DNA of 64,000 nucleotides from Candidatus Moraniibacteriota bacterium. Its GTDB lineage: Bacteria > Patescibacteriota > Minisyncoccia > Moranbacterales > UBA1568. This document shows positions 9,568 to 56,328 of this stretch, piece by piece (the first letter of the stretch is position 1; each line of letters starts with the position of its first letter). The stretch is from contig CP064994.1 of assembly GCA_016699975.1 (NCBI GenBank), forward strand, positions 554,167 to 618,166. The letters run 5' to 3'. Both the position numbers and the translations under genes were made by a program. Under the pieces are notes generated by a model. The model was not told where the DNA came from. It did no database searches and worked only from the letters and a program-made list of their open reading frames with translations.

Positions 9568-10245
9568 ATGTATACTCACTTTTCCCAGAAAATTCTTTTC
9601 TTTCTTTTTCCCCTTCTCGCCATCTTGCTTTTCTTTGGGGGATGGCTTTTCTTTCGAGGCCAAAATGAAACAGTTGAAGAAACGAATCAGTCAGATACGA
9701 TTTCAAAAAAAGTGGAAGCGCCGACACCTGATTCATCCCCCTCTTCTTCTCCCGGCTCTCGTCTTTCGGATACAGAAAACGAAGAGAATGGTATGGTGTG
9801 GTATACCATCCCGGAATATGGCATACGATTTTTGGTTGAAAGAGAAGTAGCAGAGAGAATCAATTTTACTCTCAATTCAGAGTCGAAGAAATCCGGCACT
9901 TTCTCCGTAACCGCTTCTCCGGAGAAGTCGAACTCTCCTACGAGTTCGGGTGCCAACATATTTGCTACCCTCCTTGAGGGAACAAAAGAAGATTCGAGAG
10001 TCGACCTTTCATCGTGCGAGGGAAGTGCTTGTTGTCCCGGATACATCGATGATGGGAATGAAACGGAACGTGTTTCAAATGGTGTATTGATTTTCAAAAA
10101 TTCTGAGAAAAGGGTTTGCTATTTCGCAAGCGAGTCTTCGAGAAAGTATAATGAGGCATCTGGCATGACCAAAAAATTCGATCCTGTTACAAAAAAACTT
10201 TTTGCCGGGTATCTGACGAGCGCTCTGGTCGAAGCGATACGGTGA
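9568..10245 (+). CDS. Membrane-anchored protein, paralog A of the 10855 gene (shared N-terminal TM plus GGWLFFRGQNETVEE motif)
   Basis: Start moved to ATG 9568 (MYTHFSQKILFF...) by alignment with paralog B. A 68-nt stretch is about 90% identical to 10912-10979. A later motif WYTIPEYGIRF parallels WSLYEDPEFSFKYP in B. Confidence 0.55.
   Translation: MYTHFSQKILFFLFPLLAILLFFGGWLFFRGQNETVEETNQSDTISKKVEAPTPDSSPSSSPGSRLSDTENEENGMVWYTIPEYGIRFLVEREVAERINFTLNSESKKSGTFSVTASPEKSNSPTSSGANIFATLLEGTKEDSRVDLSSCEGSACCPGYIDDGNETERVSNGVLIFKNSEKRVCYFASESSRKYNEASGMTKKFDPVTKKLFAGYLTSALVEAIR
9631..9698 (+). repeat. Direct repeat copy 1 (about 90% identical to 10912-10979)
   Basis: ttctttgggggatggcttttctttcgaggccaaaatgaaacagttgaagaaacgaatcag versus ttctttggagggtggcttttctttcgaggccaaaatgaaacggttgaagaaatgaatcaa. 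Confidence 0.7.
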
Positions 10246-10370
10246 CACTTTTCATTGCTGGCTCATCTGTAGATACTGCACTCTCCGGAAACAATATGCG
10301 AACTCTTCTGTAGCTGTGTCGAAACGAGGAATATAGATTTGAATTTCGTCTTCCGGTTGACTGAGGAATA
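10246..10370 (+). pseudogene. Remnant of the 3' end of an M23-peptidase gene paralog (homologous to 13796-13925)
   Basis: cacttttcattgctggctcatctgtagatactgcactctccggaaacaatatgcgaactcttctg aligns at about 80% with the 3' end of the 11768-13962 gene (ATLFIAGQSVDTALSGKNTRIL). It is out of frame with the upstream CDS and has a stop after 23 codons. Confidence 0.5.
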
Positions 10371-10662
10371 AAAGAGAATAGTTAACTTTCTTATTGCATG
10401 AGGACAATCAATGATAATTAAGATAAATTAGTCTTCTCACTCGGCGTAAATTTTGTAGGGCAATGAGTGTTTGGTATCCTCTTATGTCCTGCGCTCTTGG
10501 CACAGAAAGGGTTATTTCTTTTCACTCAAAAGTATTCGAAAGGAAAATCTCTCCAATTGAGAAACCAAAAATGGGAAATGGCTTTTCAGTTAGTAAGCCC
10601 GCTAAAATACATATCATATCTCGAAAATGAAAGGGGAAGCGCATAGCTTTCGTATACACTCT

Positions 10663-10697
10663 TGACAAGCAGCTGAAGATGGTTAATAATATTTTTT
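10663..10697 (+). promoter_or_regulatory. Candidate promoter TTGACA-N17-AATAAT in a long AT-rich intergenic region
   Basis: cTTGACAagcagctgaagatggttAATAATat, about 160 nt upstream of the 10855 start. Confidence 0.3.
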
Positions 10698-10854: not shown

Positions 10855-11379
10855 ATGAATATTCTTTCTCAAAAAACATTACTCCTCATTCTTTTTCTTG
10901 CTGCTCTTTCTTTCTTTGGAGGGTGGCTTTTCTTTCGAGGCCAAAATGAAACGGTTGAAGAAATGAATCAATCAGGTATCGAACGATCTTCACCTGTACT
11001 TTCAGAAAATGTTGAAAGGAAAGAAGTGATGTCGGATGAATCAGAAATGATCGACGAAAAGAGGGGAGAAGAGAAGCTCGGAGGTCTCTTTCGGAGAGTG
11101 GATACGATAGGGTGGAGCCTCTATGAAGATCCGGAATTTTCTTTCAAGTATCCTTCTTCGTATAGTATTCGAAAAATCCGTGATGGATTGTTGGTATTCG
11201 GGACAGAGGAAAGAGTTTCAAGTTCCTTTCTTCCTCGAAGTTCCTCAATCGTTGAAAAGGGATTTTCATTATCTATAGAAAGAACCCTCCTCGGAGATGA
11301 CGGTTCCGGAAAATCTGATGTCCTCCTATTGAGAGAGTGGTCTGGGGGATCGCGGAGCATTGGGAGATTCTGTGTTTGA
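10855..11379 (+). CDS. Membrane-anchored protein, paralog B (N-terminal TM plus GGWLFFRGQNETVEE motif)
   Basis: 174 aa: MNILSQKTLLLILFLAALSFFGGWLFFRGQNETVEEMNQS.... Same module order as A, and followed by the M23 peptidase gene. Confidence 0.55.
   Translation: MNILSQKTLLLILFLAALSFFGGWLFFRGQNETVEEMNQSGIERSSPVLSENVERKEVMSDESEMIDEKRGEEKLGGLFRRVDTIGWSLYEDPEFSFKYPSSYSIRKIRDGLLVFGTEERVSSSFLPRSSSIVEKGFSLSIERTLLGDDGSGKSDVLLLREWSGGSRSIGRFCV
10912..10979 (+). repeat. Direct repeat copy 2 (partner of 9631-9698)
   Basis: See copy 1. Confidence 0.7.
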
Positions 11380-11767
11380 AGAAGGAACGTACCACGGAAC
11401 GCCATCATATTTTCTCGCCAAGAGGGCAAGGGGACAATTTTTTCCGCTCCACACAGACAAGAAACATACTCTTTCTTTGACAAAAGAACCCGCTCTTTTT
11501 TTGAAATATCACTTCTGGCGACAGCCAGAGAATTCAATTCGTTTGAATATATACTGAGGGGGGTTGTCAGTACTCTGGAGTGGAAAAAATAGAATAAAAG
11601 AAGAAAATACTCTTGCCTCTCTTTCTGTTTCCTCTCACTTTTTTGAAGGGTAACTTTTCCTTTTATGCATGATTTTGTGCTGAAAGAATGAAGAGCTACC
11701 CAAAAGGAAGTGAGTTTGTGGGTATCACACTAGTTCGTTGACAACTTAACGCTGGGAGTTTGTAGTG

Positions 11768-13962
11768 ATGAAGATTAACAAATCTTTGTTTGTGTTAATA
11801 CTTTCACTTCTAATGATTGGTAAAATTTCTGCATCTGAAGTAAATGGTCAGGCTCGAGAAATTCTCAATAATCTCTTTCCCTAGAACCCGGAAGAACCCC
11901 TTTTGTAGTAAGTTGTGCTTCGGGATGTGGTCTCCATCTTGGAGAAGATCTCTATGCTCTTGATTTTACTGTTAGTGGAGAATGCCAATCGCCTTCCGGA
12001 GAGCATCCAGCTTTCGGAAAGGAAATTCGTTCTACTCAGAAGGGAGAAGTTATTAAGTCCTATAGCGGAGATAGGAGTGGATATGGGAAATACGTCGAAG
12101 TGCGGCATGCTGTTGTATCCATACGTGATAAACCAGGGGTAGAATTTCAGCTAGTGAGTAAGTATGCCCATGCTGAATCTTTGCAAGTCTCTATTGGTGA
12201 TCACATAAGATCTGGACAGGTTATTGGCCTTATGGGAAATACAGGCAACTTTTCTTCGTCGAGCCCCTGTAACCATCCCGGGACGCATCTTCATTTTGTT
12301 CTTTATTGGGATCGTTATGAGAAAGGAGTATTTAAGGAGAGGGTTGGCGAGAAACCTGTTGTCCTTTTTCCATATAATTATAATGATCTTAATAGGGGTT
12401 CATCAAAATTCTATTCAGAGACTTATGATATTGGAAAATCGGAAGAAATTGCCATGATGCAAAACTGCGATGAGATGTATCCAATATGTCGAGATGACAA
12501 TGGAGATGGAATTGTTGATGGAAGTGGAGGTTCTTCTTCGGACACGGACAAGGGTGGAGGAGGTGCAGAGGATGACTCAAATACTGCTCCTGTTTCATCT
12601 CACAATGCCGATATTACTGTCGAAGACCGAGCGTTTCGTCTCAATCCCGATGGAACTAATAACGGCTCTTCTCTGAAAGCAAACTGTCGTACATGTTTGG
12701 AAGAGGTTCTCACAGTTGGTGAAACCATCAAATATGAAGGCGTTGCTTCTGTTGCAAATGCGAACGTGAGCGATTCTCTCCGACCAGAAAAAAAGGACTC
12801 AAAAAAGATAGAATTCGGATTCTTTTTCTCGGTGAAAAACCAGGATGGTACTACCTACAAAGATTGGTGGCGAGGAGCTGAAATCGGGGTTGATATTGAT
12901 CGGCTCAGAAAAGGAAAGAGTCCTGAATTTTCTTTTCTCTACGAAACTCCCAATCTTCCCGGGAAAAAACTGGAGATGTGGATATGTGCCGATACTGATG
13001 ATGAAGTCTTGGAACCCGAAGAAGGTGATAAACGGAATCCTGTAAGGACTTCCAGGGATTGCAGGGGAAATAATCGATCCAAGATGAAAACCTTTACGAG
13101 CAAGGCAAGGGATTTCGACTATGTTCTCGAAAATGCCGGTATGATCAACGAGCAGAGAGGATATCTCTGGCTGGGCGAATCATACCGTCTTTGGTATGAG
13201 GTACATGCTTCCGGCGCAGATATTCCCATCGAACCCGTTTCAATCCTGATTTCTCGAACGGGTCCAGAAGAGGGAAAGAAATCAAACCTTCTCCTTGCGA
13301 GTCGGACGCTGACACGAGCAGAACTTACTACTGGATCTGTTTTCTTGGATCAACTCAGCGAGGTGTTTTCAGCACCTATGATTCCTGGGACATACTGGTT
13401 TCATGTTTGCGTGCACTCGGGGAAGATGCCTGAATCCAATTCTGAAAACAACTGTCGTCGCTTCCGAAAGGAAGTGCGCGATCCGGATGTCTCCATTACA
13501 CACAGTATGATTCGTTGTCCTGTGTTCACTCCTGTTACTTGGGGACCGCCCTGGAGTTCGAATCCCCAGTATGCACCGCCCTTTGATGAAAAAGGAGCTC
13601 TTGTTATTACTCCTTGGTGTCTCGAGTCTTCCCCAGACTATCTGGAGGTGTTTTTCCGAGGTTCGCAAATACTCTGGGTACACAAAGATGTGTACATTTT
13701 GAACATTGGTACGAATACACTTGTTCGATTCACGGCGGATACCTGCACGGTACCGAGGGAAGGTGGGAGTAAAGAATGGTGTCCCGGAACTGCGACACTT
13801 TTCATTGCTGGCCAATCTGTGGATACTGCACTGTCTGGAAAGAACACGCGCATTCTTGCGTGGATGTGTCGGAAGCCGACCGAGCCGAATGGAACGTGGA
13901 CGTGCGGGTGGCGACTTCAGGAAGCCAGCATACGGGCGCGACAAGGAGAAATGGTGCCTTAA
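11768..13962 (+). CDS. Secreted M23 (LytM-type) metallopeptidase with about 450-aa Cys/Trp-rich C-terminal extension; frame broken near 11872-11884 (apparent 1-nt deletion)
   Basis: Frame 2 encodes signal peptide MKINKSLFVLILSLLMIGKISASEV... and ends at TAG 11882. Frame 1 opens after the stop at 11869-11871 and encodes the M23 domain (CGLHLGEDLYALDF = HxxxD; KSYSGDRSGYGKYVEVRH; GLMGNTGNFSSSSPCNHPGTHLHFVLY) with no in-frame start before Met 12100. Adding one C to the CCC run joins the two frames. Confidence 0.65.
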
Positions 13963-14015: not shown

Positions 14016-14047
14016 CCTCCTGCGGGTGACCGTGGGGAGGTTTTTTT
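14016..14047 (+). terminator. Putative intrinsic terminator (CCTCC-N15-GGAGG then T7)
   Basis: cctcctgcgggtgaccgtggggaggttttttt, located 54 nt downstream of the M23 gene stop. Confidence 0.4.
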
Positions 14048-14126: not shown

Positions 14127-14543
14127 TTATTTCCCCAAGAAAAGGAGAAGTGCTGTTTTGTGAATCATCTCGCGATGGTTTTTCCCTCGGTCTCTCTCCA
14201 AAAAAACCGCGAGCTCGTCAAGTGCGACATCACAAGAGCGCATATGGAGCGCGTTCATTTGCGAAAGAATAGAGAAAACAAGGCACGCCGTCCGCTTGTT
14301 GCCATCGGTGAACGGATGATCCTTGATGAGAAAATAGAGATAAGCAAGTGTTTTCTCGGCCGAGGAAGCGTAGAGCTCATGCCCGAAGTAGCAGCTGTTG
14401 ATGCTCTCGACGATCGCCTCGACCCGTTTCTCTATCCGCGGGACGAGAGGAAAGGACACAAGTCCTTCTTTACGAAGCGTCTCGTATACCTGACAGACGT
14501 TTTTCGAGGTGAGCGGTCGAAATGTTTTTCTTTCCTGCGTCAT
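14127..14543 (-). CDS. doc: Doc-family toxin (Fic/Doc fold, type II TA toxin)
   Basis: Motif HPFTDGNKRTA matches the Doc signature HxFx(D/N)(A/G)NKR (P1 Doc: HIFNDANKRTA). About 138 aa from Met MTQERK. An alternative start at 14582 is possible. Confidence 0.7.
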   Translation of the reverse strand: MTQERKTFRPLTSKNVCQVYETLRKEGLVSFPLVPRIEKRVEAIVESINSCYFGHELYASSAEKTLAYLYFLIKDHPFTDGNKRTACLVFSILSQMNALHMRSCDVALDELAVFLERDRGKNHREMIHKTALLLFLGK

Positions 14544-14721
14544 AGTCGCGAAGGGATTCGAGTATGGATTTCTTTTCGGCAAACTGGCGTTCCAAAACCG
14601 AGCGAAACTCGCGATCCGCCTTTTTCATTTCTTCGGAAGAACTTCCAGAAAAAAGTTGTAGGAAATATTTCAGCATATATTCGTTTCTTCGCCGTTTAGT
14701 ATACGGGAAAATGTTCAACAT
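14470..14721 (-). CDS. Candidate cognate antitoxin (unrecognised family), upstream of and overlapping doc
   Basis: 83-aa ORF immediately upstream of doc on the same strand (MLKYF...SSEEMKKADREFRSVLERQFAEKKSILESLRDYD...). Charged and helical-looking, but no Phd/YefM signature. The 74-nt overlap with doc is unusually long, so start or extent is uncertain. Confidence 0.25.
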   Translation of the reverse strand: MLNIFPYTKRRRNEYMLKYFLQLFSGSSSEEMKKADREFRSVLERQFAEKKSILESLRDYDAGKKNISTAHLEKRLSGIRDAS

Positions 14722-14800: not shown

Positions 14801-17800
14801 TCATGAGGAAATTTTTCCCGTTTTGTTTTGGCGCCGGCGCCAAAAAGCATCGAAGAAGAGAAAGAAGATACAACCACCGAACGTGAGCCCACTGATCAGG
14901 AGCCCTACAGAGAACCATCGCTGCGGGAAGAATTCGATTCTCATCTCGATATCATACGAACCGTCCTCGTTTTTTCGGCACGCAACGCTTTCCTCTTGGC
15001 AGAGTATTTCCGGCTCTACAAACCAGCCGTTTAAGAATCCGTTTAATTTGAAGTGCTTTTCTTCGTCAATTTGACGCGGATGAACCCACGGGATCCAATT
15101 TTTGAGCCAACCGTTTACTGCTTCGTCGTTCAAAAACGCTTTCCATTCGGGATGGAAACTTTCGCTCATCGCGAGATAAAACGGCGTCGTCGCTCCCTGC
15201 ATATGAACGAGCTTCTTTGTCGGGTTCACCAAATCAAAAGCAATCTCGCGCGGCTCTCTGAAGTTTGTTTCTGGATCCGACACGAGGTAGTATCGGTCGA
15301 GAATATCGGGAAGCTCTACGAGAGAAAAGTTGTCGTAACGCGTGACGACATTTGTCTTTTCGTCTCTCGAGTACGAATAGAGCGTGAGAGTAGCTGATGT
15401 TGCTCCCTCGGGAACGGAAATCACTTTCGTGAATGTTTGCCAGGGAGACTCTGCCTCCACACCCTCTTTCTCGAGAGAAATCTTTTCGCTTACCGAAGAT
15501 TTCTTGGAGTCATTGAAAGCGATATGAAACCCTGCTTGCCTTCCGTTCGGACTTTGATAATCAAACGAGAAAAGCGCCGAGGTTTTTTCGCGAACGGGAA
15601 TATCTTTTTGGTTTGTGCAGGCGATGTGGCGTGTGGCAGCGAGCTCAAGAAATCGGTTTCCTTCTGAGGCTCTATTCTCGCCCAACGTCATCTCAAGGAC
15701 GGGGTTATCGTCCGTCGCATTGCAATCCCCGACTTTCTCTTTCCACAAACCTTCTTCGAACGAGGGGTTCTTGATTCGATTTGAAAAATCATGTTCGGGA
15801 TCTTCGTATTTCACCGAAATTTGTCCCGCGGCTCTATCGAGGGGAATCCGAACAAAGGAATCTGTGCGCTCCGATGGTGAGAGAAGTAACGTTGAGTCAT
15901 TGCTCTGGACTGCCGACTCCGGAGCTCGAGCATACAGAGAAAGACTTCCTGAAGAATTGTTAATACTTTCTTCAATATCATTGGTGTGAAATCCGATATT
16001 TTTTGGTGATATTTCTTCAAATAAAGGGTAAACTTTTCTTGAAGGGAAGACTCCTTCTGGAGTCAAAGAAAATTCAGGCTGGTTTTCAAAAGAAGCGCTC
16101 AAAAACTTATACTTTGAAAGACTATTTACTTCCAATTGATAGGAAAAAATTTCTTTAAATGTTCGAATTTCTTCTTTGGACTCTCTGTTAATAAAGTTAG
16201 TAGAGTATTTCAGTTCTTCTTTCGAATCAGAATATTTTGAATCAAGGAATGAATATGTTGATTGATAATCTATTTTTGGTGAAAAGAGACCAAATTTTTC
16301 TTCGGATTGGTAAAACTCTTGTTTCTTAAGATACACTCGGTCAATTGATGAAATGCTTAATAAGTCGAAAAAGAGGGGATCTTGTTGATTGAAAAGGGAT
16401 TGAAGAGTGTCTTGAAAAAGTTTGGTTTCTTTATACGAACCTCCCAAACGAAAGGTATTTATGCTGTAGCTGGAATTTTCATAATTTAATTCGTCCTGAT
16501 GATAGGAAGGAATTACGAGCGATCTTCCTGGACGCTGGTTGGCGTTCTCAATAATTTCGTTTATAACAATGCTTTCCTTATATTTTTCGGGAGAGCTTTT
16601 TTGAAAAAGTGAAATATCTCTTCCAAAAAGAGGCCATGCATAGATACAGTTGGCGATGAGAAATGCGGAAACAAGAATGAAAAAATTTTTGGCTGATACA
16701 AGACTTTTAATTAAGGATAATACTATTGCAAGCAACAGAATTGAAAAAATAAGCAAGATGATTTGTACCTTCGCTGGGTTCCTTATTGTATTTGTAAACC
16801 AGCCCATTTCAAAAGCCTTGGTACCAAATTCTTGATTCACAGTAAGAATATGGAGAAATCCAATAATGAGTATTATGACAATGAGAATCCCATAAAACTC
16901 TGTATTAAGATTCTTGGTTTTTGATTCTTTAAAGTTCTTCGTATTCGTATCTTTTTCTTTTTGAAGGAGTAGAAGTATAAGACAGAGAAGGAATATAAAA
17001 GAATAACCAAAGATGTTTTTTGTTGATATTTGATTATATCCAAGAGTTACTTGTCCATTCCCATTATTTCCAGCAAACCGAAGAGTGTTTATAAGCGAAG
17101 TGGACTTGTAGTTGTGAAGATAATCTTGAATCGACGAAGATCCGGGAAGTGATTCCTTTCCGGAAGATGACACTAAGAAAAGCGGGAGGAATAAAAACGA
17201 AAGAAGAACAATTGAAAGAATAGAAAACACCGAGAGTCTTACTGTGTATTTTAATGATAGTCCCAGTATTACCTTTATTCCCACAAATAAAATAAGTGAA
17301 AGAAAGAGAATAAAGATAACCGGAGGAAGAAATGTTACGGTTAAGAATAAAGTCAGTACCCAAAGAACAGTATTTTTTAGGGAAAATTCTTCCTTATAGA
17401 ATATTTTTATTGAGAAATAAAGAAGAAAAAGAAGTGAAGAATAAACCCAAATTGTTTGACCATTTCTAAAGTCACCAAATATTATTGGGTTTGCTATGGA
17501 AAAAAATCCTGAAACAAATGATATGAGGGAGCTTTTATAAAGTTTATAAGTTACATAGTAAGCGGAGTACATCAGAAGAAACAGTGGAAAGATTCGTAAA
17601 AGAAGAAATTCTCCATGATCATCAAGAAAGGGGATTTTTGTTATTCCAAGTGGGATGATATTTGTCAAAGAAGTTCTTATCGAAGTTCCAAAATTCGCAT
17701 AACTCCAGAGGTAGATAGTCTTATCGGTAAGGATTTGGCGTGAGAGCTGATCGGTATGGGCATAGTCTCCCCAGGCAAGTGGTTCTCCCCTTAAGTCTAT

Positions 17801-17968
17801 AAAAAAAACCGAAGTGGTAAAAAGAAATACGAGAAATAATAATACAACAGGCATGAACCCCTTCACTTTTAGGGGTATGTCATTAAAATATTTTTTTATT
17901 TTTTGCGCGTTCTTCTCCATGAAATTTTGAGCTTTTTCAATGCAGTGCAATGCGTGTAAATCTATCAA
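14801..17968 (-). CDS. Giant (1055 aa) polytopic membrane protein: N-terminal about 14-TM domain, large extracytoplasmic beta-rich domain, C-terminal TM anchor (GT-C / AftD-like architecture, tentative)
   Basis: One long ORF. N-terminal half is highly hydrophobic. C-terminal about 450 aa is soluble (…FLNGWFVEPEI…), followed by final TM FSVGLLISGLTFGGCIFFLFF and RRRQNK. GC content shifts from about 48% (C-terminal domain coding) to about 30-38% (TM domain coding). Confidence 0.65.
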   Translation of the reverse strand: MIDLHALHCIEKAQNFMEKNAQKIKKYFNDIPLKVKGFMPVVLLFLVFLFTTSVFFIDLRGEPLAWGDYAHTDQLSRQILTDKTIYLWSYANFGTSIRTSLTNIIPLGITKIPFLDDHGEFLLLRIFPLFLLMYSAYYVTYKLYKSSLISFVSGFFSIANPIIFGDFRNGQTIWVYSSLLFLLYFSIKIFYKEEFSLKNTVLWVLTLFLTVTFLPPVIFILFLSLILFVGIKVILGLSLKYTVRLSVFSILSIVLLSFLFLPLFLVSSSGKESLPGSSSIQDYLHNYKSTSLINTLRFAGNNGNGQVTLGYNQISTKNIFGYSFIFLLCLILLLLQKEKDTNTKNFKESKTKNLNTEFYGILIVIILIIGFLHILTVNQEFGTKAFEMGWFTNTIRNPAKVQIILLIFSILLLAIVLSLIKSLVSAKNFFILVSAFLIANCIYAWPLFGRDISLFQKSSPEKYKESIVINEIIENANQRPGRSLVIPSYHQDELNYENSSYSINTFRLGGSYKETKLFQDTLQSLFNQQDPLFFDLLSISSIDRVYLKKQEFYQSEEKFGLFSPKIDYQSTYSFLDSKYSDSKEELKYSTNFINRESKEEIRTFKEIFSYQLEVNSLSKYKFLSASFENQPEFSLTPEGVFPSRKVYPLFEEISPKNIGFHTNDIEESINNSSGSLSLYARAPESAVQSNDSTLLLSPSERTDSFVRIPLDRAAGQISVKYEDPEHDFSNRIKNPSFEEGLWKEKVGDCNATDDNPVLEMTLGENRASEGNRFLELAATRHIACTNQKDIPVREKTSALFSFDYQSPNGRQAGFHIAFNDSKKSSVSEKISLEKEGVEAESPWQTFTKVISVPEGATSATLTLYSYSRDEKTNVVTRYDNFSLVELPDILDRYYLVSDPETNFREPREIAFDLVNPTKKLVHMQGATTPFYLAMSESFHPEWKAFLNDEAVNGWLKNWIPWVHPRQIDEEKHFKLNGFLNGWFVEPEILCQEESVACRKNEDGSYDIEMRIEFFPQRWFSVGLLISGLTFGGCIFFLFFDAFWRRRQNKTGKISS

Positions 17969-18995
17969 AGATTTTCAAGTATTTTTGTCTCTGACATTTC
18001 ATGTATTGCAATTGATTGTTTGCTGATATTTCTATGAAACTCCGATACTTTATTATCGTAGCTGATTGGGAGAAATGGAATTCCTGCGAAGTGAGCAGAT
18101 ATTTGAACGTGGTACTGCGGGGCTATAACGTATAGATTCGAGGCATGTTTTTTGAGTGCCAGAATAAACGCAATTGGGTTATATTCGAAATCCGATGCTG
18201 TGATATTCCCATGCTCCTGTTCCAGAGCCTTCATTTTTGAGTAGAGTTTTGGAGCGATAGTTTTGGATTCGAAGACGACAAGAGAAAATTTCTTTGAAGT
18301 ATTTTTCCGAACGAAATTGAAAAGAGTGTTGGTATAGGTCCAAAATTTCTTGTTGGTGAAGCGGCGAAATCCTACGAGTGTTATTGGTTCATGGAAACCG
18401 AGATTCTTCGATATTTCTTCCGCTTCTTTTTCGTAGGCATCGGTCGAAACTTCATCGAGCGAGAAACTAATATCTCGGTCGAGCAGCGTGTTTGCCTTAT
18501 TAAACTTCGAGAAATTCTCAAAAGTTTCCGGGTCTCGCGCCAAAATAAGTTTTGCTGATTTTGCCGCGAGGTAGGCCGATATTCTGCCTAAGAAAGAAGT
18601 GGATGTGTAATATCCTATTCCCAAAAGGTAGACGTTTTTCCTGGAGAGCTTTGAGAAAAGAAATAAAAGCGCGCTCAATACGAATATATTTTTATTGAAA
18701 TCGAGTCCCCATATCCCTCCTCCTCCTATGATGATATTTTTGAACCGAAAAACCCTTTGAGGATACCGACTTTTTCTGAAGAGTTGATGATTGAATAGCT
18801 AAAGTCGTGATGATATGTTCCGAAAATCTTTGGATTCGAGTAGTAAATTTTTACATTCTTTACTCCGTGTTTCGAGAACAGAAGTTGCAGTATTTCCAAA
18901 AGGAGTTCATCGCCATAATTTGTTCCTCCATAATAGCCTATGAGGAACGTATTTTCGAGATTTCTCGAAGAAAAGAATTTTGAAAGATGATTCAT
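17965..18995 (-). CDS. Polysaccharide pyruvyl transferase family protein (CsaB/WcaK-like), split into two ORFs (18995-18726 and 18678-17965) by an apparent 1-nt deletion
   Basis: N-terminal piece carries IGYYGGTNYGDELLLEIL, the PF04230 signature GYYGxxNxGDE. C-terminal piece has ...ILARDPETFE... and ...ITLVGFRRF..., consistent with the central and C-terminal motifs. Frames differ by one position. AT-rich (about 30% GC). Confidence 0.55.
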
Positions 18996-26410: not shown

Positions 26411-27582
26411 ATGAAGATTCTTCTTCACAATTATGAATATCCACCGCTTGGCGGGGGAGCAGGGAATGCGACCGAATACCTCTTGAAGGAATTCGCGAAA
26501 TTTTCTGATATAGAGGTGACGGTAGTGACGTCGTCAATCGACGACGTGCACCGTATTGAGTATCCAGCTCCGCACATTCGGATCGAGCGTCTCCCGGTTG
26601 GCAAAAAACCGGCGCGAAAGATCTTCACTTTCAATCGAAGAAAAATTTGGTTGCGTACGCCTGGAAGTCCTGGTTGTTTTCCCGCAAGATTCTCCGCCAG
26701 GAACGATTTGATCTTTTGCACGCATTCTTCTCGGTGCCCTCGGGGTTTGTGGCGCTCCTCCTTCGTCTTGAGTTCGGCGTACCTTTTCTGGTGTCGCTTC
26801 GCGGTTCCGATGTTCCGGGCTACAGCGAGCGCTTCAAAAACATGTACCCGCTTCTTCGCCCGGTGACACGATCTATTTGGCGACATGCTGCGCGTGTTAT
26901 CGCAAACAGTGAGGGCCTTCGCACGCTCGCGCTCCTTACTGATGCTTCTCGCGATATTGCCATTATCCGAAACGGCGTTGATACCGAAGAATTCTTCCCC
27001 GTGCCGCGCGAGTATACGGCTCGTCCCGAAGTTCCGTTTCGCATTCTGGCGATCGCGCGTCTTACGCCGCGAAAGGGTTTGCGAACGCTTCTCGAAGCGA
27101 TGCTCATCCTTCAAAATCGCAAGCAACGAGTTTTTACACTCGATATCGCCGGAGACGGGGACGAGCGCCTCATGCTCGAAACCTTTGTTCGTGAGAAAGG
27201 GCTCTCCGATCGCGTGCGATTTCTCGGGCGCGTGCCACACCGCGATATTGTGCCGCTCTACCATCGCGCACACGTGTATGTGCTCCCCTCCTTAAGCGAA
27301 GGAATGAGCAACAACGTGCTCGAGGCGATTGCCTCCGGGCTCCCCATTATTACGACGGATACGGGTGGCACGCGCGAATTGGTCGAGGAAGGACGAAACG
27401 GATGTGTGATCAGAATGAACGATCCCGAGCACATTGTGGAGAAGATCGTCTTTCTTGCCGAGCATCCCGAGCAGGCCCGGCTTTATGGTATGGAGAGTCG
27501 TCGGCGAGCGCTCGAACTTGGGTGGGTCGAAGTAGCAAAATCATACAGAAAAGCCTACCAAGATATCACCAAAAGCTCATAA
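26411..27582 (+). CDS. Glycosyltransferase family 4, frame broken in a poly-A tract (26604-26609 or 26641-26645; apparent 1-nt deletion)
   Basis: Frame A gives the N-terminus MKILLHNYEYPPLGGGAGNATEYLL.... Frame B from about 26650 gives ...KILRQERFDLLHAF...PFLVSLRGSDV...LPSLSEGMSNNVLEAIASGLPIITTD. Adding one A restores a continuous GT4. Confidence 0.7.
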
Positions 27583-27611
27583 AAATTTTTTGTGAGGATT
27601 GTCTCAATCGT

Positions 27612-28591
27612 ATGCTGCTCGAAACGAAAAAATCCGAAAAAAGAAAGCCCTTGTCTTTTGCTTTCAAGCTCTTGGTATCAGTCGGATTTGTGTCATGGCT
27701 TCTCTTTCGTCTCGACTGGACGGACGTCATGAAGCGGATTTTGGAAGTTGATGGAAACTATCTTCTTCTGTATCTTGCCCTTCTTCTTTTCGGAATGTTT
27801 CTTTCTGCAAAAAAGTGGCGACTCCCTGCTCAGCATAAAGGCTTTGCTCGTCCGCAAGGCGATTTCTTCCAGGCGTATTTGACGGGCGCCTTTATCAATA
27901 ATTTTTCCCTTCCACCATTGGGGGCGATACGTATCGTGCTCTGTGGCTCGGTCGCCGAGACGGAAAACTTTCGCCTGCGATTTCGACGGTGCTTATCGAC
28001 CGATTCACAGGGCTGTGGGCTGCCATGGTGCTCGCTCTCTTTTTTTCGCTCTTTCATTGGGAGCTTGTGCTCGCGCATCCTTTTTGGCTATTTTTAAACG
28101 CGCTTATCGTCGTTTTGCTCATCCTTGATTTTCTACCTCTTCTGCTGCGGAAAATTCCCCGCGCGAAAAAATGGATCTCCCTGTTGCCGGAAAAAATTTT
28201 GCATCTCATTGGCGAACTGGGGAGCTATCCCTTTCGGAAAGTTATGGTGCCGGCACTTTTTCTTTCGCTTGTTTTTAATTTCGTAGGCGTCGGCCTTTCG
28301 AATCTCGTGCTTTTCCGGGCGCTGGGCGGAGGAGTGGAGCTCTTTGAATATTTGAGCGTCATTTTTTTGATTACGATCGTCTCGAGTATTCCAATAAGTA
28401 TAAATAACATCGGTCTCAAAGAATGGGCGTACGCGGTGTTTTTTGGGTATCTTGGAGCCTCGGTCGAGGCAGCGGTCACGGTTGCCTTGGTGAGCCGGAT
28501 CCTCCAGATGTTTGTGAGCTTTGCGTCTCTTCCTTTTTATCTGCGTTCCCGGGATCTTTTAGGACGAGAACAAGAAGGAGGAAGGCGCTGA
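27612..28591 (+). CDS. UPF0104 / lysyl-PG-synthase-TM-region-like flippase-like membrane protein, frame broken at T5 27902-27906
   Basis: Frame A: MLLETKKSEKRKPLSFAFKLLVSVGFVSWLLFRLDW...AFINNF. Frame B continues FFPSTIGGDTYRALWLGRRDGKLSPAISTVLIDRFTGLW..., which I recall as the PF03706 consensus. Adding one T joins them. Confidence 0.6.
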
Positions 28592-34397: not shown

Positions 34398-36076
34398 ATG
34401 AGATCGCCTATGAACCCACATGAAGAAAATGGTTTGCGATACAAAACGATATTTTTCTGGGGAATATTTTTTGTGATGCTTTTTGGCGCCGTATTTGTGC
34501 GAACGACGCACTACGAAGAATGGATGATTATTAAGTCCGATCAGATTCGCGACGCGATGGTGTCTCTCAAGGTGCTTGAAAACGGATTCGGAGAACTCCC
34601 GCTTTTTGGCCCGAGAGCCGGCGGGACACACTTGCGGCTTGGTCCAATATTCTACTATTTTCAAACTGCTTCAGCTCTGCTTTTCCATTCCGCTTCTCCA
34701 GGAGTGCTTGCGCTTCCCACGCTTCTTTTTTCGCTTCTCTCGATCCCGCTCTTTTTTCTCATGGCGAGAAGGCTCTTTTCCCGGAATCTTTCTTTGATTC
34801 TCACGATCGTGTTTTCGTATGGATTCCTCGCGATTGAGCATGCTCGTTTCTCCTGGAATCCGAATTCCACAACTTTTTTTACCCTTCTCTTTCTCTACTC
34901 GTTTCTGCGGATTCTGGCGGACGATACGCCGAAAAAACTGTGGTGGTATGCAGCGCTCGGTCTTTCTTATGGTGTTGTTTCACAGCTCCACTTCACGGTT
35001 CTTTTGGCACTTCCTTTGTTTATTGCGTTCTTTGCGATTTTTCGACCGAAGCGAGTGTGGCGCGTTTTGTCGTGGAAGGGAGTCGCGATATTTTTGGGCG
35101 TCATTCTCCTTCTCTACACGCCTGTCTTTGTAAGTGAAGTCCTGAGCGGGGGGAAGAATGCGTCGGAAACCTTTGCCGCGGTTGCGGAGAAGGGATCCGA
35201 GAAAACACTGATCGGAAATGTTCGTCGTGTCCTCAAAAATTTCGGCGAATATTTTTTCCGTATCGGTTTCGGATATTTCGGAGGGCCGCGCCCGTTTCAG
35301 TATGCGGGGATCGCGCTCCTGGGGAGCGGTCTCTTTCTCTCTCTCTTCTTATTTCGAAAAGAGAAAGACGAATCTCGTCGGGATGTTTTTTTGGCGATTC
35401 CGATTTTGCTTGCAACGTTTTTCTCCTCTTCCTTCCGATTGCAACGACGGTGGACAAACCGCGATTTTTTCTCCCGCTTCTCTTTGTGCCGACCATTTTT
35501 TTCGGTATGATAACGTGTCTTACATTCTCCGGAAAAATCCGGTTCTTCCCCACGATTCTTGCTGCGCTCTTCCTGGGAGCGAGCCTCGGATCCAATATGT
35601 TCTTTACCTACCAGTGGCTTTCCGAGATCCGTCATTCAACACATCGGTACGTCTCTGCGAAAAAGGATACCGTGGTACTCAAAATGAAAAAGGATGACAT
35701 GTGGTGGTCTTGGGAACAAATTCACGGCGCGGTCGAATATATGATACGAGATTGTCCCAATGAAAATATTCTCGTACAGTACAAAGGGCAGGCGGCCGAC
35801 TTTATGCACACCACGCTCTACGCCTTTCGTCTCGCGGGAGACGATCGTATTCGTCGATCGACCACCTACGAAGGACCAAGTTTTTGCCGCTACGCTCTCA
35901 CCAAGTCGAAGCCGGGTGAAAATCCCGATGACGATCAGTGGGATATCGGCGATCTGCGTATTCTCGCTCTCGAGAAGCGCGGAGGGAGTTTCGATACCAG
36001 TATCTATGGAAAAGGAGAGTCAGAAGAAGAGCCTTCGAAAAACAAATTCGAGTACTGGAAGGACGTTACCCGCTAA
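34398..36076 (+). CDS. GT-C-fold membrane protein, tandem paralog 2, frame broken at T5 35417-35421
   Basis: Frame A runs to ...ILLATFF. Frame B continues LLFLPIATTVDKPRFFLPLLFVPTIFFG, which parallels paralog 1 (...AFQLRPRFFLVVLPIPFLFFG). Adding one T joins them into about 559 aa. Confidence 0.6.
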
Positions 36077-41654: not shown

Positions 41655-43042
41655 ATGACACCACTCTCTCGCGGAATTTTTTTTCTCTTTCTTTTTCTCC
41701 TTCCTCTTCAAACAGTATGGATACTGAGGGAGGTGTCTCTTGATGGGTCCAAGTGGGAATATGGCACGATCGGAATTTTTGGAACGGACGTCGTGCTTCT
41801 CCTTTTCATGGTGACATTCTTGGGAGAGCGCATCTTTTCTTGGAAAAGAAACAATCCACGCTCTTTTTCATTTTCTTTTTTGTTTCGCGGCGTTATTGCG
41901 AAGGGCGCTCTCCTTGATGCGAGGACCCGTATTGTCTTCGGAAGTCTTGTTGCTCTTCTTGTGTGGAGCGCGCTTTCCATACTGTGGGCGGAAGACACGG
42001 TACTTGCCCGATATTTTTTCGTCAAGATGCTTTTTGCGGCGGGAGTATTTTTTGTGGCGCGGTCTCTTCGGTATCAATTCGCTTCATATGGAGCGCTCAT
42101 CCTTTTTGCGGGAGCGGTTCTTGAGAGTATGCTCGGGCTCTGGCAGTTTCTGTTGCAAGATACTATAAGGTCGACGATTTTTGGTATGAGTCATTTTGAG
42201 GTGTGGCGCCCCGGCGTCTCGGTTCTCAAAAACGAAAGCGGTCGGTGGCTTCGAGCGTATGGCTCCTTGCCGCACCCCAATATACTCGGGGGGATTTCTT
42301 GCCTCGACGCTCATTTTGGGCTGTTCTTTTGAGTGGTGCTCGTACCAAAACGCAGAGGATCACGATATTCATTTCCACTTTCTTTGTGGCGCTCGGCGTT
42401 TTGGTCACGTTTTCGCGCTCTGCTTGGTTGGGAGTATTCCTTGGAGTTATTGCCTTATCTTTTGGGGTGTTTCGCTGGGGAGAAAGTGCTCAGAAAAAAC
42501 ACTTCGCTCTGAGCTTTCTCCTCATAATGTGTGCTCTCCTTCCTTTCCTCTTCCTCTTTCGTGAGACGATATTTCCACGATTTGACTCGAAAACGATTGA
42601 ACGGGAAGGGTCTATATCGGAGCGGATTACTTCTTTGTATGACGCGAAGGAGGTGCTGAGCCGAGGAGATATCTTGATGGGAGTCGGAGTCGGAAATTTT
42701 ACGAATGCCGTTCACTCCCTTCATCCAACGCGACCGATATGGAGTGTTCAGCCGGCACACAACGTATTCCTCCTCGTGACGGCGGAAGGGGGGGTGCCTG
42801 GAGTCATTCTCTTTCTCCTCTTCCTGATATCAGCTACAGGCGCCATCCTTTCTGTCGGGAAAACAAAAAACCTTGAGAAGCGTCTTCTTTCTCTCACATT
42901 TTTTTGCGCGTTTGTTGCCCTTCTCCCGAGCTTCTTTTTGGATCACTTTTTATGGACTGCTCATTTTGGGATGCTGCTTCTCTTTTTCTTGCTGGGCGTT
43001 GTTTCAAAGAGTGAGTTTGATAAAGGCAAGGAGGTGTCGTGA
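41655..43042 (+). CDS. O-antigen ligase / Wzy-like polymerase family membrane protein, frame broken in G6 run 42288-42293
   Basis: Second half contains ...LVTFSRSAWLGVFLGVIAL..., a Wzy_C-like TfSRsawL motif. Multi-TM throughout. Adding one G joins the ORFs 41655-42332 and 42203-43042. Confidence 0.55.
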
Positions 43043-55184: not shown

Positions 55185-55820
55185 GTGAATCATCAGGCGT
55201 TCATGGTTGTCATGGGAGGGCTAGCGGGAGTGATTTCATTATTTGCTTACATCCCTTATATTCTTTCGATTCTTCATGGGAAAACAGTTCCAAGCAAAAG
55301 TACTTGGTGGATCCTCAGCGCTTTGGGAGGAGTGACATTCTTATCTTATCGGGATGCTGGAGGATTCAATACCTCATTTTTTCTTCTAGGGGATGTCATT
55401 GGGTCTTCGGTAGTAGCATTTCTCAGTCTTTTTTATGGTAAGAAAAGTATACAGAAACTCGACATTTTCTGTTTTCTTGGAGCCGCAGCTAGTTTTATTC
55501 TCTGGTTTTTTATAAATGAAAATCCTTCCATTGCCTTCTGTTCCGGCTTGTTCGTCGAAGTCATTGCGATGATTCCTACGATAAGGAAGATCGTGGCCAA
55601 TCCTTTTGAAGAAGATATCGGTGGATGGTTTCTCACTTTTCTTGCCTCGGTTGTCAATAGTTATGCCATTGAAGAGTGGAGCTTTGTAGTTTTTTTCTAT
55701 CCATTTTATGAAGTGGGTATAAATGGTCTCGTCGTTTTTCTTATTTCTTCCGGGAGAAAGAAATTGCTTCGCGTAAATATTCCTTTCATTCGTATGGACT
55801 CAAGTGCTCTTGCTAAATGA
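55185..55820 (+). CDS. Hypothetical 6-TM membrane protein
   Basis: 211 aa with six hydrophobic helices. Its stop lies 8 nt before the SET-domain gene ATG. Confidence 0.5.
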   Translation: MNHQAFMVVMGGLAGVISLFAYIPYILSILHGKTVPSKSTWWILSALGGVTFLSYRDAGGFNTSFFLLGDVIGSSVVAFLSLFYGKKSIQKLDIFCFLGAAASFILWFFINENPSIAFCSGLFVEVIAMIPTIRKIVANPFEEDIGGWFLTFLASVVNSYAIEEWSFVVFFYPFYEVGINGLVVFLISSGRKKLLRVNIPFIRMDSSALAK

Positions 55821-55827
55821 AAGACGT

Positions 55828-56328
55828 ATGTGCCTGCAAAAAGACCTGTATGTTTCACGATCAATGATATCTGGACGAGGTCTTTTCTGTCGAGTAAATA
55901 TTCCTCGAGGAAAGCCAATTTTTGTTATGAAAGGAAGAACGGTCTCTTTCAAGGTTTCGACAAAAAAAGACGCGATGCTTTTTCCCTCGAGAGTTGGCAT
56001 CGGTAAAGATACTTGGATGGAACCCGACATGAAATTTGTCAAATTTATTAATCATTCATGCGAACCGACAGCGGGTATTCGGGGACGAGTAACTTTCGTG
56101 GCTTTGTGCGATATACCAGCAGGAGAAGAAATTACTTTTGACTATTCAATATCTGAAGATAGCCAATGGGAAATGCCGTGCTCGTGTGGTGCGAAAAGCT
56201 GTCGAAAAATTATAAAAGGGGTGCAGAATCTTCCTGAAAGTATTTTCAATTCTTATCTTCCTTTTATACCAAAGTACTTTCAGAAAGTGTACAGAAAATC
56301 GAAGTTCTCCTCGCGCACAAAAAAATAG
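55828..56328 (+). CDS. SET-domain protein (second copy; putative protein-lysine methyltransferase)
   Basis: ISGRGLFCRVNIPRGKPIF...FINHSCEPTAG...AGEEITFDYS...CSCGAKSCRKII: SET core plus post-SET Cys cluster. An upstream GTG at 55804 is also possible. Confidence 0.7.
   Translation: MCLQKDLYVSRSMISGRGLFCRVNIPRGKPIFVMKGRTVSFKVSTKKDAMLFPSRVGIGKDTWMEPDMKFVKFINHSCEPTAGIRGRVTFVALCDIPAGEEITFDYSISEDSQWEMPCSCGAKSCRKIIKGVQNLPESIFNSYLPFIPKYFQKVYRKSKFSSRTKK

Follow-up and report, generated by a model that had tools for sequence, protein, structure and literature searches.

A predicted modular M23 cell-wall hydrolase of Candidatus Moraniibacteriota with CARDB-type domains, a family-specific C-terminal domain and a membrane-anchored partner

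Lysostaphin, an M23 peptidase with an SH3b domain, and zoocin A, an M23 peptidase with a target recognition domain (TRD), are built from a secreted M23 head, a flexible linker and a swappable C-terminal module (PMC9662197). The immunity genes of these bacteriolysins lie adjacent to them. A comparable arrangement is found in a 64,000-nucleotide (nt) stretch of contig CP064994.1 from a Candidatus Moraniibacteriota bacterium (the window), where positions 11768-13962 contain the coding sequence, broken by a frameshift, of an M23 metallopeptidase with a large C-terminal extension, preceded by a small membrane-anchored partner gene (gene B). The locus probably represents a Sec-exported modular peptidoglycan hydrolase of this lineage of the candidate phyla radiation (CPR, Patescibacteria), with a partner whose outer domain is exchanged along with the catalytic head; in order, the protein would comprise a signal peptide, the M23 head, a Gly/Ser/Asp linker, two CARDB-type immunoglobulin-like domains (D1 and D2) and a third domain, D3. 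The CARDB-CARDB-D3 tail sets the protein apart from lysostaphin and zoocin A; SH3b, LysM, PG_binding and the zoocin TRD have no match in the extension, and Pfam and NCBIfam give only M23-type families for the whole protein. By analogy with the bacteriolysins the small linked gene may protect the producer; unlike their immunity genes it is membrane-anchored and has no family match, and a FemABX-like immunity gene is found neither in genes A and B beside the hydrolase nor in the partners at other loci.

Polymorphic toxin and effector-immunity cassettes, such as those of the type VI secretion system amidase effectors, likewise combine a conserved scaffold with alternative heads and an adjacent small gene that changes along with the head. 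As in those cassettes, the boundaries of exchange at the loci described here fall at domain boundaries, and copies in tandem occur along with orphan or relic pieces; in contrast, the variable head is N-terminal rather than C-terminal, the putative immunity gene lies upstream and has a conserved N-terminal anchor, and export is apparently plain Sec, with no secretion-system genes nearby. Phage endolysins also join M23 and CHAP heads to binding modules through domain shuffling, whereas the proteins of this family have signal peptides and are neighboured by cellular genes; since no relatives are found in 2.9 million viral contigs and no structural match is found in BFVD at E 0.001 or better, the hydrolase is considered not to be phage-derived. 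By function the closest described systems are the modular M23 and CHAP hydrolases and the bacteriolysins, and by genetics the closest are the polymorphic effector-immunity cassettes; the new elements are the D3 family and the co-swapped partner.

The head of the hydrolase matches Peptidase M23 (Pfam PF01551) with 54.6 bits against a gathering cut-off of 28.7 (E 1.2e-14), the match covering residues 49-147 of the 696-amino-acid (aa) frame-1 product. The zinc motifs of M23 enzymes are H(x)3D and HxH, accompanied by a further His some 30-40 residues before HxH (PMC9662197); the full set is present here as HLGED (11935-11949, aa 22-26 of the frame-1 product), HLH (12286-12294, aa 139-141) and His100 in YAHAE (12163-12177), an additional catalytic His 39 residues before HxH. 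The LytM-type catalytic domain with HxxxD and H.H named in the preliminary description is thereby upheld. In NCBIfam, the similarity to characterised M23 enzymes is weak and stays below threshold, and the protein is therefore described as an M23 peptidase without a named subfamily.

The C-terminal extension (12607-13959, 449 residues) contains 12 Cys (2.7%) and 14 Trp (3.1%), compared to 0.64% Cys and 1.14% Trp in the 14 long open reading frames (ORFs) of the window, and the Cys/Trp-rich character attributed to the roughly 450 aa after the M23 domain is borne out; the peptides quoted for it (WICADTDDEVLEPEE, HVCVHSGKMPESNSENNCRRF and TWTCGWRLQ) are all found in the frame-1 translation. Ten of the extension cysteines are invariant in an alignment of seven sequences, namely 372 and 397, 513 and 528, and 549, 583, 625, 637, 666 and 678, and the two Cys of the D1 CxxC pair are either both kept or both replaced; a conserved pattern of this kind would be expected if an exported protein is held together by disulfides. 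With the extension as query, 5.8 billion clusters yielded only the protein itself and P0002, in which this tail follows a CHAP domain (37% identity, E 9e-71); a profile of these two retrieved five more relatives, giving seven clusters in all. P0003, P0005 and P0006 have an M23 head and 727-728 aa, P0004 has a second type of M23 head and 758 aa, and P0007 is a CHAP-like protein of 704 aa; all five have signal peptides and continuous ORFs. The tail of P0003-P0006 is D1-D2-D3, as it is behind the CHAP heads of P0002, P0007 and P0008. An exhaustive phmmer search of 1.84 billion representatives produced 184 matches, which local domain hidden Markov models sorted into 26 with D1, 137 with D2-like repeats (mostly giant multi-repeat proteins) and 18 with D3. 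The architectures include four: an M23 or CHAP head followed by D1-D2-D3, by D1-D3, or by CARDB-CARDB-D3, and an enzyme-free D1 with three D2 repeats. The last is represented by P0009 (L005:3323-5158 (+), also in L013), a 611-aa protein with D1 and then three D2-type repeats, without enzyme or D3, whose gene lies directly 3' of rpsG and fusA in a Moraniibacteriota metagenome-assembled genome (MAG).

All named sources of the tail family are Moraniibacteriota. Scans of genomes, metagenomes and viral contigs with alignment A8 added two Moraniibacteriota loci, along with one duplicate, and nothing viral; a homology search with the D3 profile returned a single fragment (P0154), which is probably a limit of the word index. 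The same tail behind unrelated M23 and CHAP heads makes the extension a separable unit, as would be expected of the targeting or regulatory module proposed for it in the preliminary description. A secreted-type M23 cell-wall hydrolase with a large, independent, non-catalytic C-terminal module is supported.

The extension had also been described as a single stretch of unknown fold; this does not hold, as it consists of three beta-sandwich domains and a CARDB match, an outcome that the preliminary description itself named as a refutation, is found for about two thirds of it. Novelty of fold is thereby refuted for D1 and D2, and novelty is retained for D3 only (~160 aa), as a novel family with a generic beta-sandwich fold. 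The reference for D1 and D2 is CARDB (Pfam PF07705), known from Pyrococcus PF1109 (PDB 3idu) and from giant multi-CARDB surface proteins. D1 is predicted to be a CARDB-fold domain with insertions and extra disulfides: its AlphaFold2 model from 22 sequences has a predicted local distance difference test score (pLDDT) of 91.5 and a predicted template modelling score (pTM) of 0.83, and matches the fold of a solved CARDB domain; sequence comparison does not assign D1 to a family, with nothing in Pfam and, in hhalign, 25.8% and E 7e-4 against CARDB repeats. The acidic and Asn cluster of D1 (D..D...E..E...N) is invariant, which by analogy to the di-metal 3idu structure suggests metal binding.

D2 is considered a divergent CARDB domain on the basis of profile-profile comparison. 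The D2 alignment (A7) compared to 13 CARDB repeats of P0011 (A6) gives an hhalign probability of 92.3% and E 5.5e-7 over 85 columns, with the PGxY...C.....E....NNC tail aligned; P0011 has 17 CARDB repeats by Pfam (E 3e-170). Multi-CARDB giant proteins match the D2 tail repeatedly, the whole of D2 is matched by P0139, a CARDB protein by Pfam (E 2e-46), and P0012, P0049, P0053 and P0089 have a Pfam-significant CARDB domain at the D2 position followed by D3. A direct match of the window sequence to the PF07705 profile is not found, and homology at the profile-profile level is found for D2. D1 and D2 differ from described CARDB domains in that neither gives any Pfam score, and D1 has ~60 extra residues as well as the additional disulfides; both are nonetheless assigned to the CARDB fold or superfamily. 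A 2022 review of M23 enzymes (PMC9662197) does not name CARDB when listing their usual accessory domains, and a search of the accessible literature found no paper linking CARDB, CPR bacteria and peptidoglycan.

D3 is the C-terminal domain in all 16 full-length carriers, the other two of the 18 carriers being fragments. Of its six conserved Cys, four are invariant and two are present at >=90% across 12 sequences; a model from these sequences has eight strands (pLDDT 86.3, pTM 0.82). D3 has no Pfam or NCBIfam match, no significant PDB profile match and no viral structural match in BFVD at E 0.001 or better; PDB sequence searches of the extension, made with the single sequence and with profiles A4, A5 and A7, returned only 8q82_A for D3 (E 0.017), which is taken as noise. 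A relationship to CARDB was considered and rejected, with hhalign giving 0.3% against CARDB repeats and hence no relation. The extreme D3 tail (13915-13959; columns ~168-184 of alignment A4) reads QQAATxAARQ in relatives and LQEASIRARQ here, with Q.A...ARQ conserved, and could be a recognition peptide. A 751-aa protein from the same Moraniibacteriota MAG as P0009 (L005:6732-8987 (-)) combines fn3 and Golvesin_C with a D3-like end (hhalign 98.8%, E 5e-17) and an additional ...WKCGCRDDSCGNLYWQVQGAG motif; since the D3-like end occurs on this protein, D3 is regarded as a general C-terminal module of secreted proteins in the lineage that extends beyond wall hydrolases.

It could be proposed that D3 is a sorting or anchoring tag for an export or attachment machinery, similar to the C-terminal domains of the type IX secretion system, with Q.A...ARQ as the signal. 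The strictly C-terminal position, the occurrence on functionally different secreted proteins (peptidoglycan hydrolases and the Golvesin_C and fn3 protein) and the conservation of an extreme tail that is modelled at low confidence (pLDDT 55-67) are in keeping with such a tag; set against it, a machinery of this kind is not known and is not seen in the neighbourhood, the proteins have Sec signal peptides already, the best structural neighbours of D3, which are weak, include carbohydrate-binding modules (CBM56), and related proteins without D3 exist (P0009, D1 with three D2 repeats). A sorting function is therefore considered improbable, and D3 is instead hypothesized to be a binding or targeting module that would place the catalytic head on a particular cell-wall or surface glycan; that D3 would set target specificity follows the analogy to lysostaphin SH3b and the zoocin A TRD (PMC9662197). 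D1, D2 and the linker would form a rigid stalk, probably stabilised by Ca2+.

Counting the window, 11 of 12 loci have a same-strand partner gene ahead of the hydrolase gene, and in 10 of the 11 other loci (L001, L002, L003, L006, L007, L008, L009, L014, L015 and L016) it encodes 200-280 aa and lies directly 5' of the hydrolase gene. The membrane-anchored neighbour reported in the preliminary description is thus conserved; its naming as paralog B holds in that gene B is membrane-anchored and immediately upstream (10855-11379), and fails in that gene B is a paralogue of gene A and not of the hydrolase. The partner anchor, MN.K.LILSIP.ML.V.L.GGW.L.R..., is closely similar in most loci and diverged in L014 and L015, while the outer domains fall into several mutually unrelated types: type X partners accompany M23 type 1 in three contigs, and a type Z partner accompanies CHAP type 2 in L007.

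The exchange is best seen in the comparison of L003:1054-4895 with L006:1100-4800, which are mosaics of three blocks. The first block, of 692 nt and 98.6% identical, extends from the end of a methyltransferase gene to partner codon 45; the second, of ~1.6 kb, has no detectable similarity and covers the outer domain of the partner, the spacer that follows and the catalytic head; the third, of 1479 nt and 89.9% identical, starts from the Gly/Pro linker before D1. Since the dissimilar block is flanked by sequence of 98.6% and 89.9% identity, the enzyme head and the partner outer domain are exchanged as one block between conserved flanks, and their downstream recombination boundary is matched in the window by the linker that starts at ~12517. 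Different enzymatic domains are seen on one conserved scaffold and the gene next to them changes too, in a small number of independent cassettes (~6 types). L003 and L006 both adjoin a gene for a D12-class DNA methyltransferase; the L006 copy is truncated.

The window contains a further gene of the partner type. Gene A (Table 1) shares with gene B a 68-nt anchor repeat (9630-9697 and 10911-10978, 91% identical), and it is Z-like, with 35% identity to the L007 partner (E 4e-17). A repeat search identifies the relic beside gene A as an 86-nt copy (10239-10324) that is 80% identical to 13789-13874, and by tblastn the match, reaching 10325, corresponds to extension residues 640-668 (69% identity, E 3e-6). 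Because two partner genes share an anchor and a relic of a second tail is present, the genome must once have contained two tandem cassettes. The promoter-like and terminator-like sites that bracket gene B and the hydrolase are pattern matches, and suggest that the two form one operon; the partner and hydrolase would then be co-transcribed from the site at 10662 to that at 14018. The partner is proposed to recognise the head with which it travels and to act on it as inhibitor, as immunity protein or as regulator.

Table 1. Features of the hydrolase locus and its surroundings, in window coordinates
Feature	Position	Strand	Remarks
Gene A, further gene of the partner type, sharing the membrane anchor of gene B	9568..10245	+	Outer domain resembles the L007 partner
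3'-end relic of another hydrolase-extension gene	10239..10325	+	In-frame stop; abuts the gene A stop codon
Promoter-like site ahead of gene B, TTGACA-17-AATAAT, 11/12 matches	10662..10690	+	Consensus match only
Gene B, upstream membrane-anchored partner	10855..11592	+	In-frame TGA 11377-11379; same frame continues to TAG 11590-11592
Signal-peptide ORF of the hydrolase gene	11768..11884	+	38 codons + TAG; frame differs from that of the catalytic domain
Frameshift zone TCTCTTTCCCTAG	11872..11884	+	One base missing relative to an intact gene
M23 zinc-endopeptidase catalytic domain	11911..12350	+	Pfam PF01551 and motifs
Post-catalytic region and linker	12351..12606	+	Two Cys (C199, C206), then Gly/Ser/Asp-rich flexible linker from ~12517
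D1, CARDB-fold beta-sandwich with insertions (predicted)	12607..13101	+	CxxC pair 12685-12696; Cys372/Cys397; acidic DxxDxxxExxE...N motif
D2, divergent CARDB domain (predicted)	13102..13476	+	Invariant Cys513/Cys528; tail PGTYWFHVCVHSGKMPESNSENNC
D3, beta-sandwich with six conserved Cys	13477..13962	+	Cys 549, 583, 625, 637, 666, 678; coordinates include the stop codon
Terminator-like hairpin and T-run	14018..14047	+	56 nt after the hydrolase stop; consensus match only

M23 and CHAP enzymes are mostly autolysins (PMC9662197), and the protein may be seen as a housekeeping autolysin that remodels the wall of the producer during growth and division, with D1-D3 holding it on the producer surface and the partner positioning or activating it in the manner of FtsEX with PcsB or EnvC, or of another regulator of autolysins; the membrane anchor, outward-facing domain and tight linkage of the partner would suit this role, as would the housekeeping genes that flank the loci (hrcA/grpE, SHMT, GroEL and relA). 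A housekeeping role is nevertheless rated as rather unlikely: Zn-peptidase and Cys-peptidase heads interchange on the same tail and beside the same anchor, the locus displays tandem duplication, deletion relics and apparent inactivation, and the family is extremely rare and patchy, all of which is atypical of an essential division enzyme. The exchange of catalytic class, the tandem duplication with decay and the rarity of the family favour a role in conflict over housekeeping without constituting proof, and the use of the hydrolase against other cells, raised in the preliminary description, is possible.

It is tentatively hypothesized that the locus belongs to an undescribed polymorphic two-gene cassette of Moraniibacteriota, in which an exchangeable M23 or CHAP head on a CARDB-CARDB-D3 stalk would breach the walls of hosts or competitors, the partner, its outer domain co-exchanged with the head, would inhibit that head or confer immunity to it, and D3 would recognise glycans or cell walls as a new type of domain. 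Secreted wall hydrolases are obvious candidates for the tools by which ultra-small CPR bacteria attach to, feed on or compete with other cells, processes that are poorly understood. The family offers three experimental handles in D3, the CARDB-type stalk and the two-gene mosaic: D3 is a small disulfide-rich domain without named relatives that is open to wall or glycan binding assays, and the joint exchange of head and partner outer domain predicts specific recognition between enzyme and partner. If the partner is an immunity protein, the locus would provide a CPR lineage with an effector-immunity system that depends on Sec; otherwise it would still illustrate cleanly how wall hydrolases shuffle their domains.

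Several points weigh against the interpretation of the locus as a modular hydrolase with a co-exchanged partner. Pfam searches of the split extension at E values up to 10 find no family for D1 or D2 of the window, and the assignment of D2 is based on profile comparison rather than a fold model. The partner outer domains have no significant family, with PsbP_2 only sub-threshold and nothing in NCBIfam, and a role of the partner as inhibitor or immunity protein is purely inferred; L011 (P0026) lacks a partner gene altogether. The N-terminal part of the Y-type partner is found with both the M23 type 2 head of L006 and the CHAP head of L001, and the co-variation of partner type with head type is drawn from few independent cassettes (~6 types). 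L003 and L006 also differ further upstream, and may be paralogous rather than allelic. Furthermore, the gene in the window is not intact, and the function of the hydrolase in its source organism is uncertain.

The region 11768-13962 is 2195 nt long, which is not divisible by three, and contains no single ORF under translation table 11; the only ORF listed there is 12100-13962, with a GTG start and 620 aa. The ATG at 11768, which has a GGGAG Shine-Dalgarno-like motif ~10 nt upstream, opens a 38-codon ORF (MKINKSLFVLILSLLMIGKISASEVNGQAREILNNLFP) of signal-peptide shape that stops at the TAG at 11882-11884; n-, h- and c-regions like those of signal peptides are present in MKINKSLFVLILSLLMIGKISA/SE, and the intact homologues P0003, P0005 and P0006 begin with an equivalent signal peptide in a single continuous ORF. 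The M23 frame opens at 11872, offset from that of the signal peptide, and has no ATG, GTG or TTG upstream of 12100, so that HxxxD precedes its first canonical start. Restoring one base within 11872-11881 gives a 731-aa product reading ...NNLFPLEPGRTPFVVSCASGCGLHLGED..., compared to 704-758 aa for intact homologues, and the repaired reading ...NNLFPLEPGRTPF... is similar to ...NLKMPFLAGELW... of P0003. The single secreted protein of ~730 aa proposed for this region is therefore recovered after a one-base repair, whereas no intact ORF encodes it and the frameshift had been bridged silently. As the sequence stands, the gene of the catalytic domain is broken and its frame offers neither a usable start nor an export signal, which may be due to an assembly error. 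The NCBI product P0001 ('M23 family metallopeptidase', 645 aa), for which an exact look-up returned no record, begins 3' of the HxxxD motif; recurrent one-base frame breaks in the assembly truncate annotated proteins, and the annotated product lacks the zinc-binding HxxxD.

Two ways of joining the frames without a lesion were considered. An alternative genetic code or read-through from 11768 is rejected, as the frames are different and the signal-peptide frame contains more stops after the TAG; a programmed -1 frameshift is unlikely, with TCTCTTTCCCTAG lacking an X XXY YYZ slippery heptamer and the homologues being uninterrupted ORFs. Beyond its TGA, the frame of gene B continues to a plausible protein C-terminus (...FEISLLATAREFNSFEYILRGVVSTLEWKK). 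Both genes are interrupted, the hydrolase gene by a 1-nt frameshift at 11872-11884 and gene B by its TGA, and a second cassette has left its relic a short way upstream; the copy in the window is therefore either mis-assembled or decaying.

If all of these lesions are real, the window would hold a decaying pseudogene pair without function, an account that is plausible if not the expected one: the frameshift, the TGA and the relic are three independent lesions within 4 kb, any product would lack the HxxxD zinc ligands for want of an upstream start, and the shift zone contains only 3-nt runs rather than the long homopolymers that are classically error-prone. The gene B lesion, a nonsense codon rather than an indel, also points to real damage, as does the presence of a genuine relic nearby. 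On the other side, 696 codons are open downstream of the shift, none of the catalytic residues or of the 10 family-invariant Cys is lost, and at least one other gene in the window is split, namely ORFs 27402-28097 and 27989-28591 (+), both of which match LPG_synthase_TM, at model positions 2-83 and 114-299. All four apparent frame shifts in the window have the same direction, with one base missing; this shared direction suggests systematic single-base deletions in the assembly. The break in the hydrolase gene is thus judged likely to be an error of assembly, and quite possibly a real pseudogene lesion. In the overlap zone of the LPG_synthase_TM ORFs (27402-28591) there are T7, G5 and T5 runs, and overlapping same-strand ORF pairs resembling frame breaks are seen in a PMT_2 glycosyltransferase (34398-36076 (+), second ORF from 35450) and in a Wzy_C O-antigen-ligase-like gene (41655-43042 (+), second ORF from 42203).

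Just 3' of the hydrolase, on the opposite strand, 14127-14721 (-) contains a Fic/DOC-family gene (Pfam E 1.7e-9), and a small ORF at 14470-14721, upstream of and overlapping it, is a candidate antitoxin; with these two genes just downstream, the hydrolase cassette adjoins a toxin-antitoxin-like module. Further along, 14801-17968 (-) encodes a 1055-aa multi-pass membrane protein without a Pfam match, and the G+C content falls to 33% at 16001-18000 compared to ~48-50% for the whole window. A SET-domain protein (Pfam E 2.4e-13) is encoded at 55804-56328 (+) of this bacterial window.

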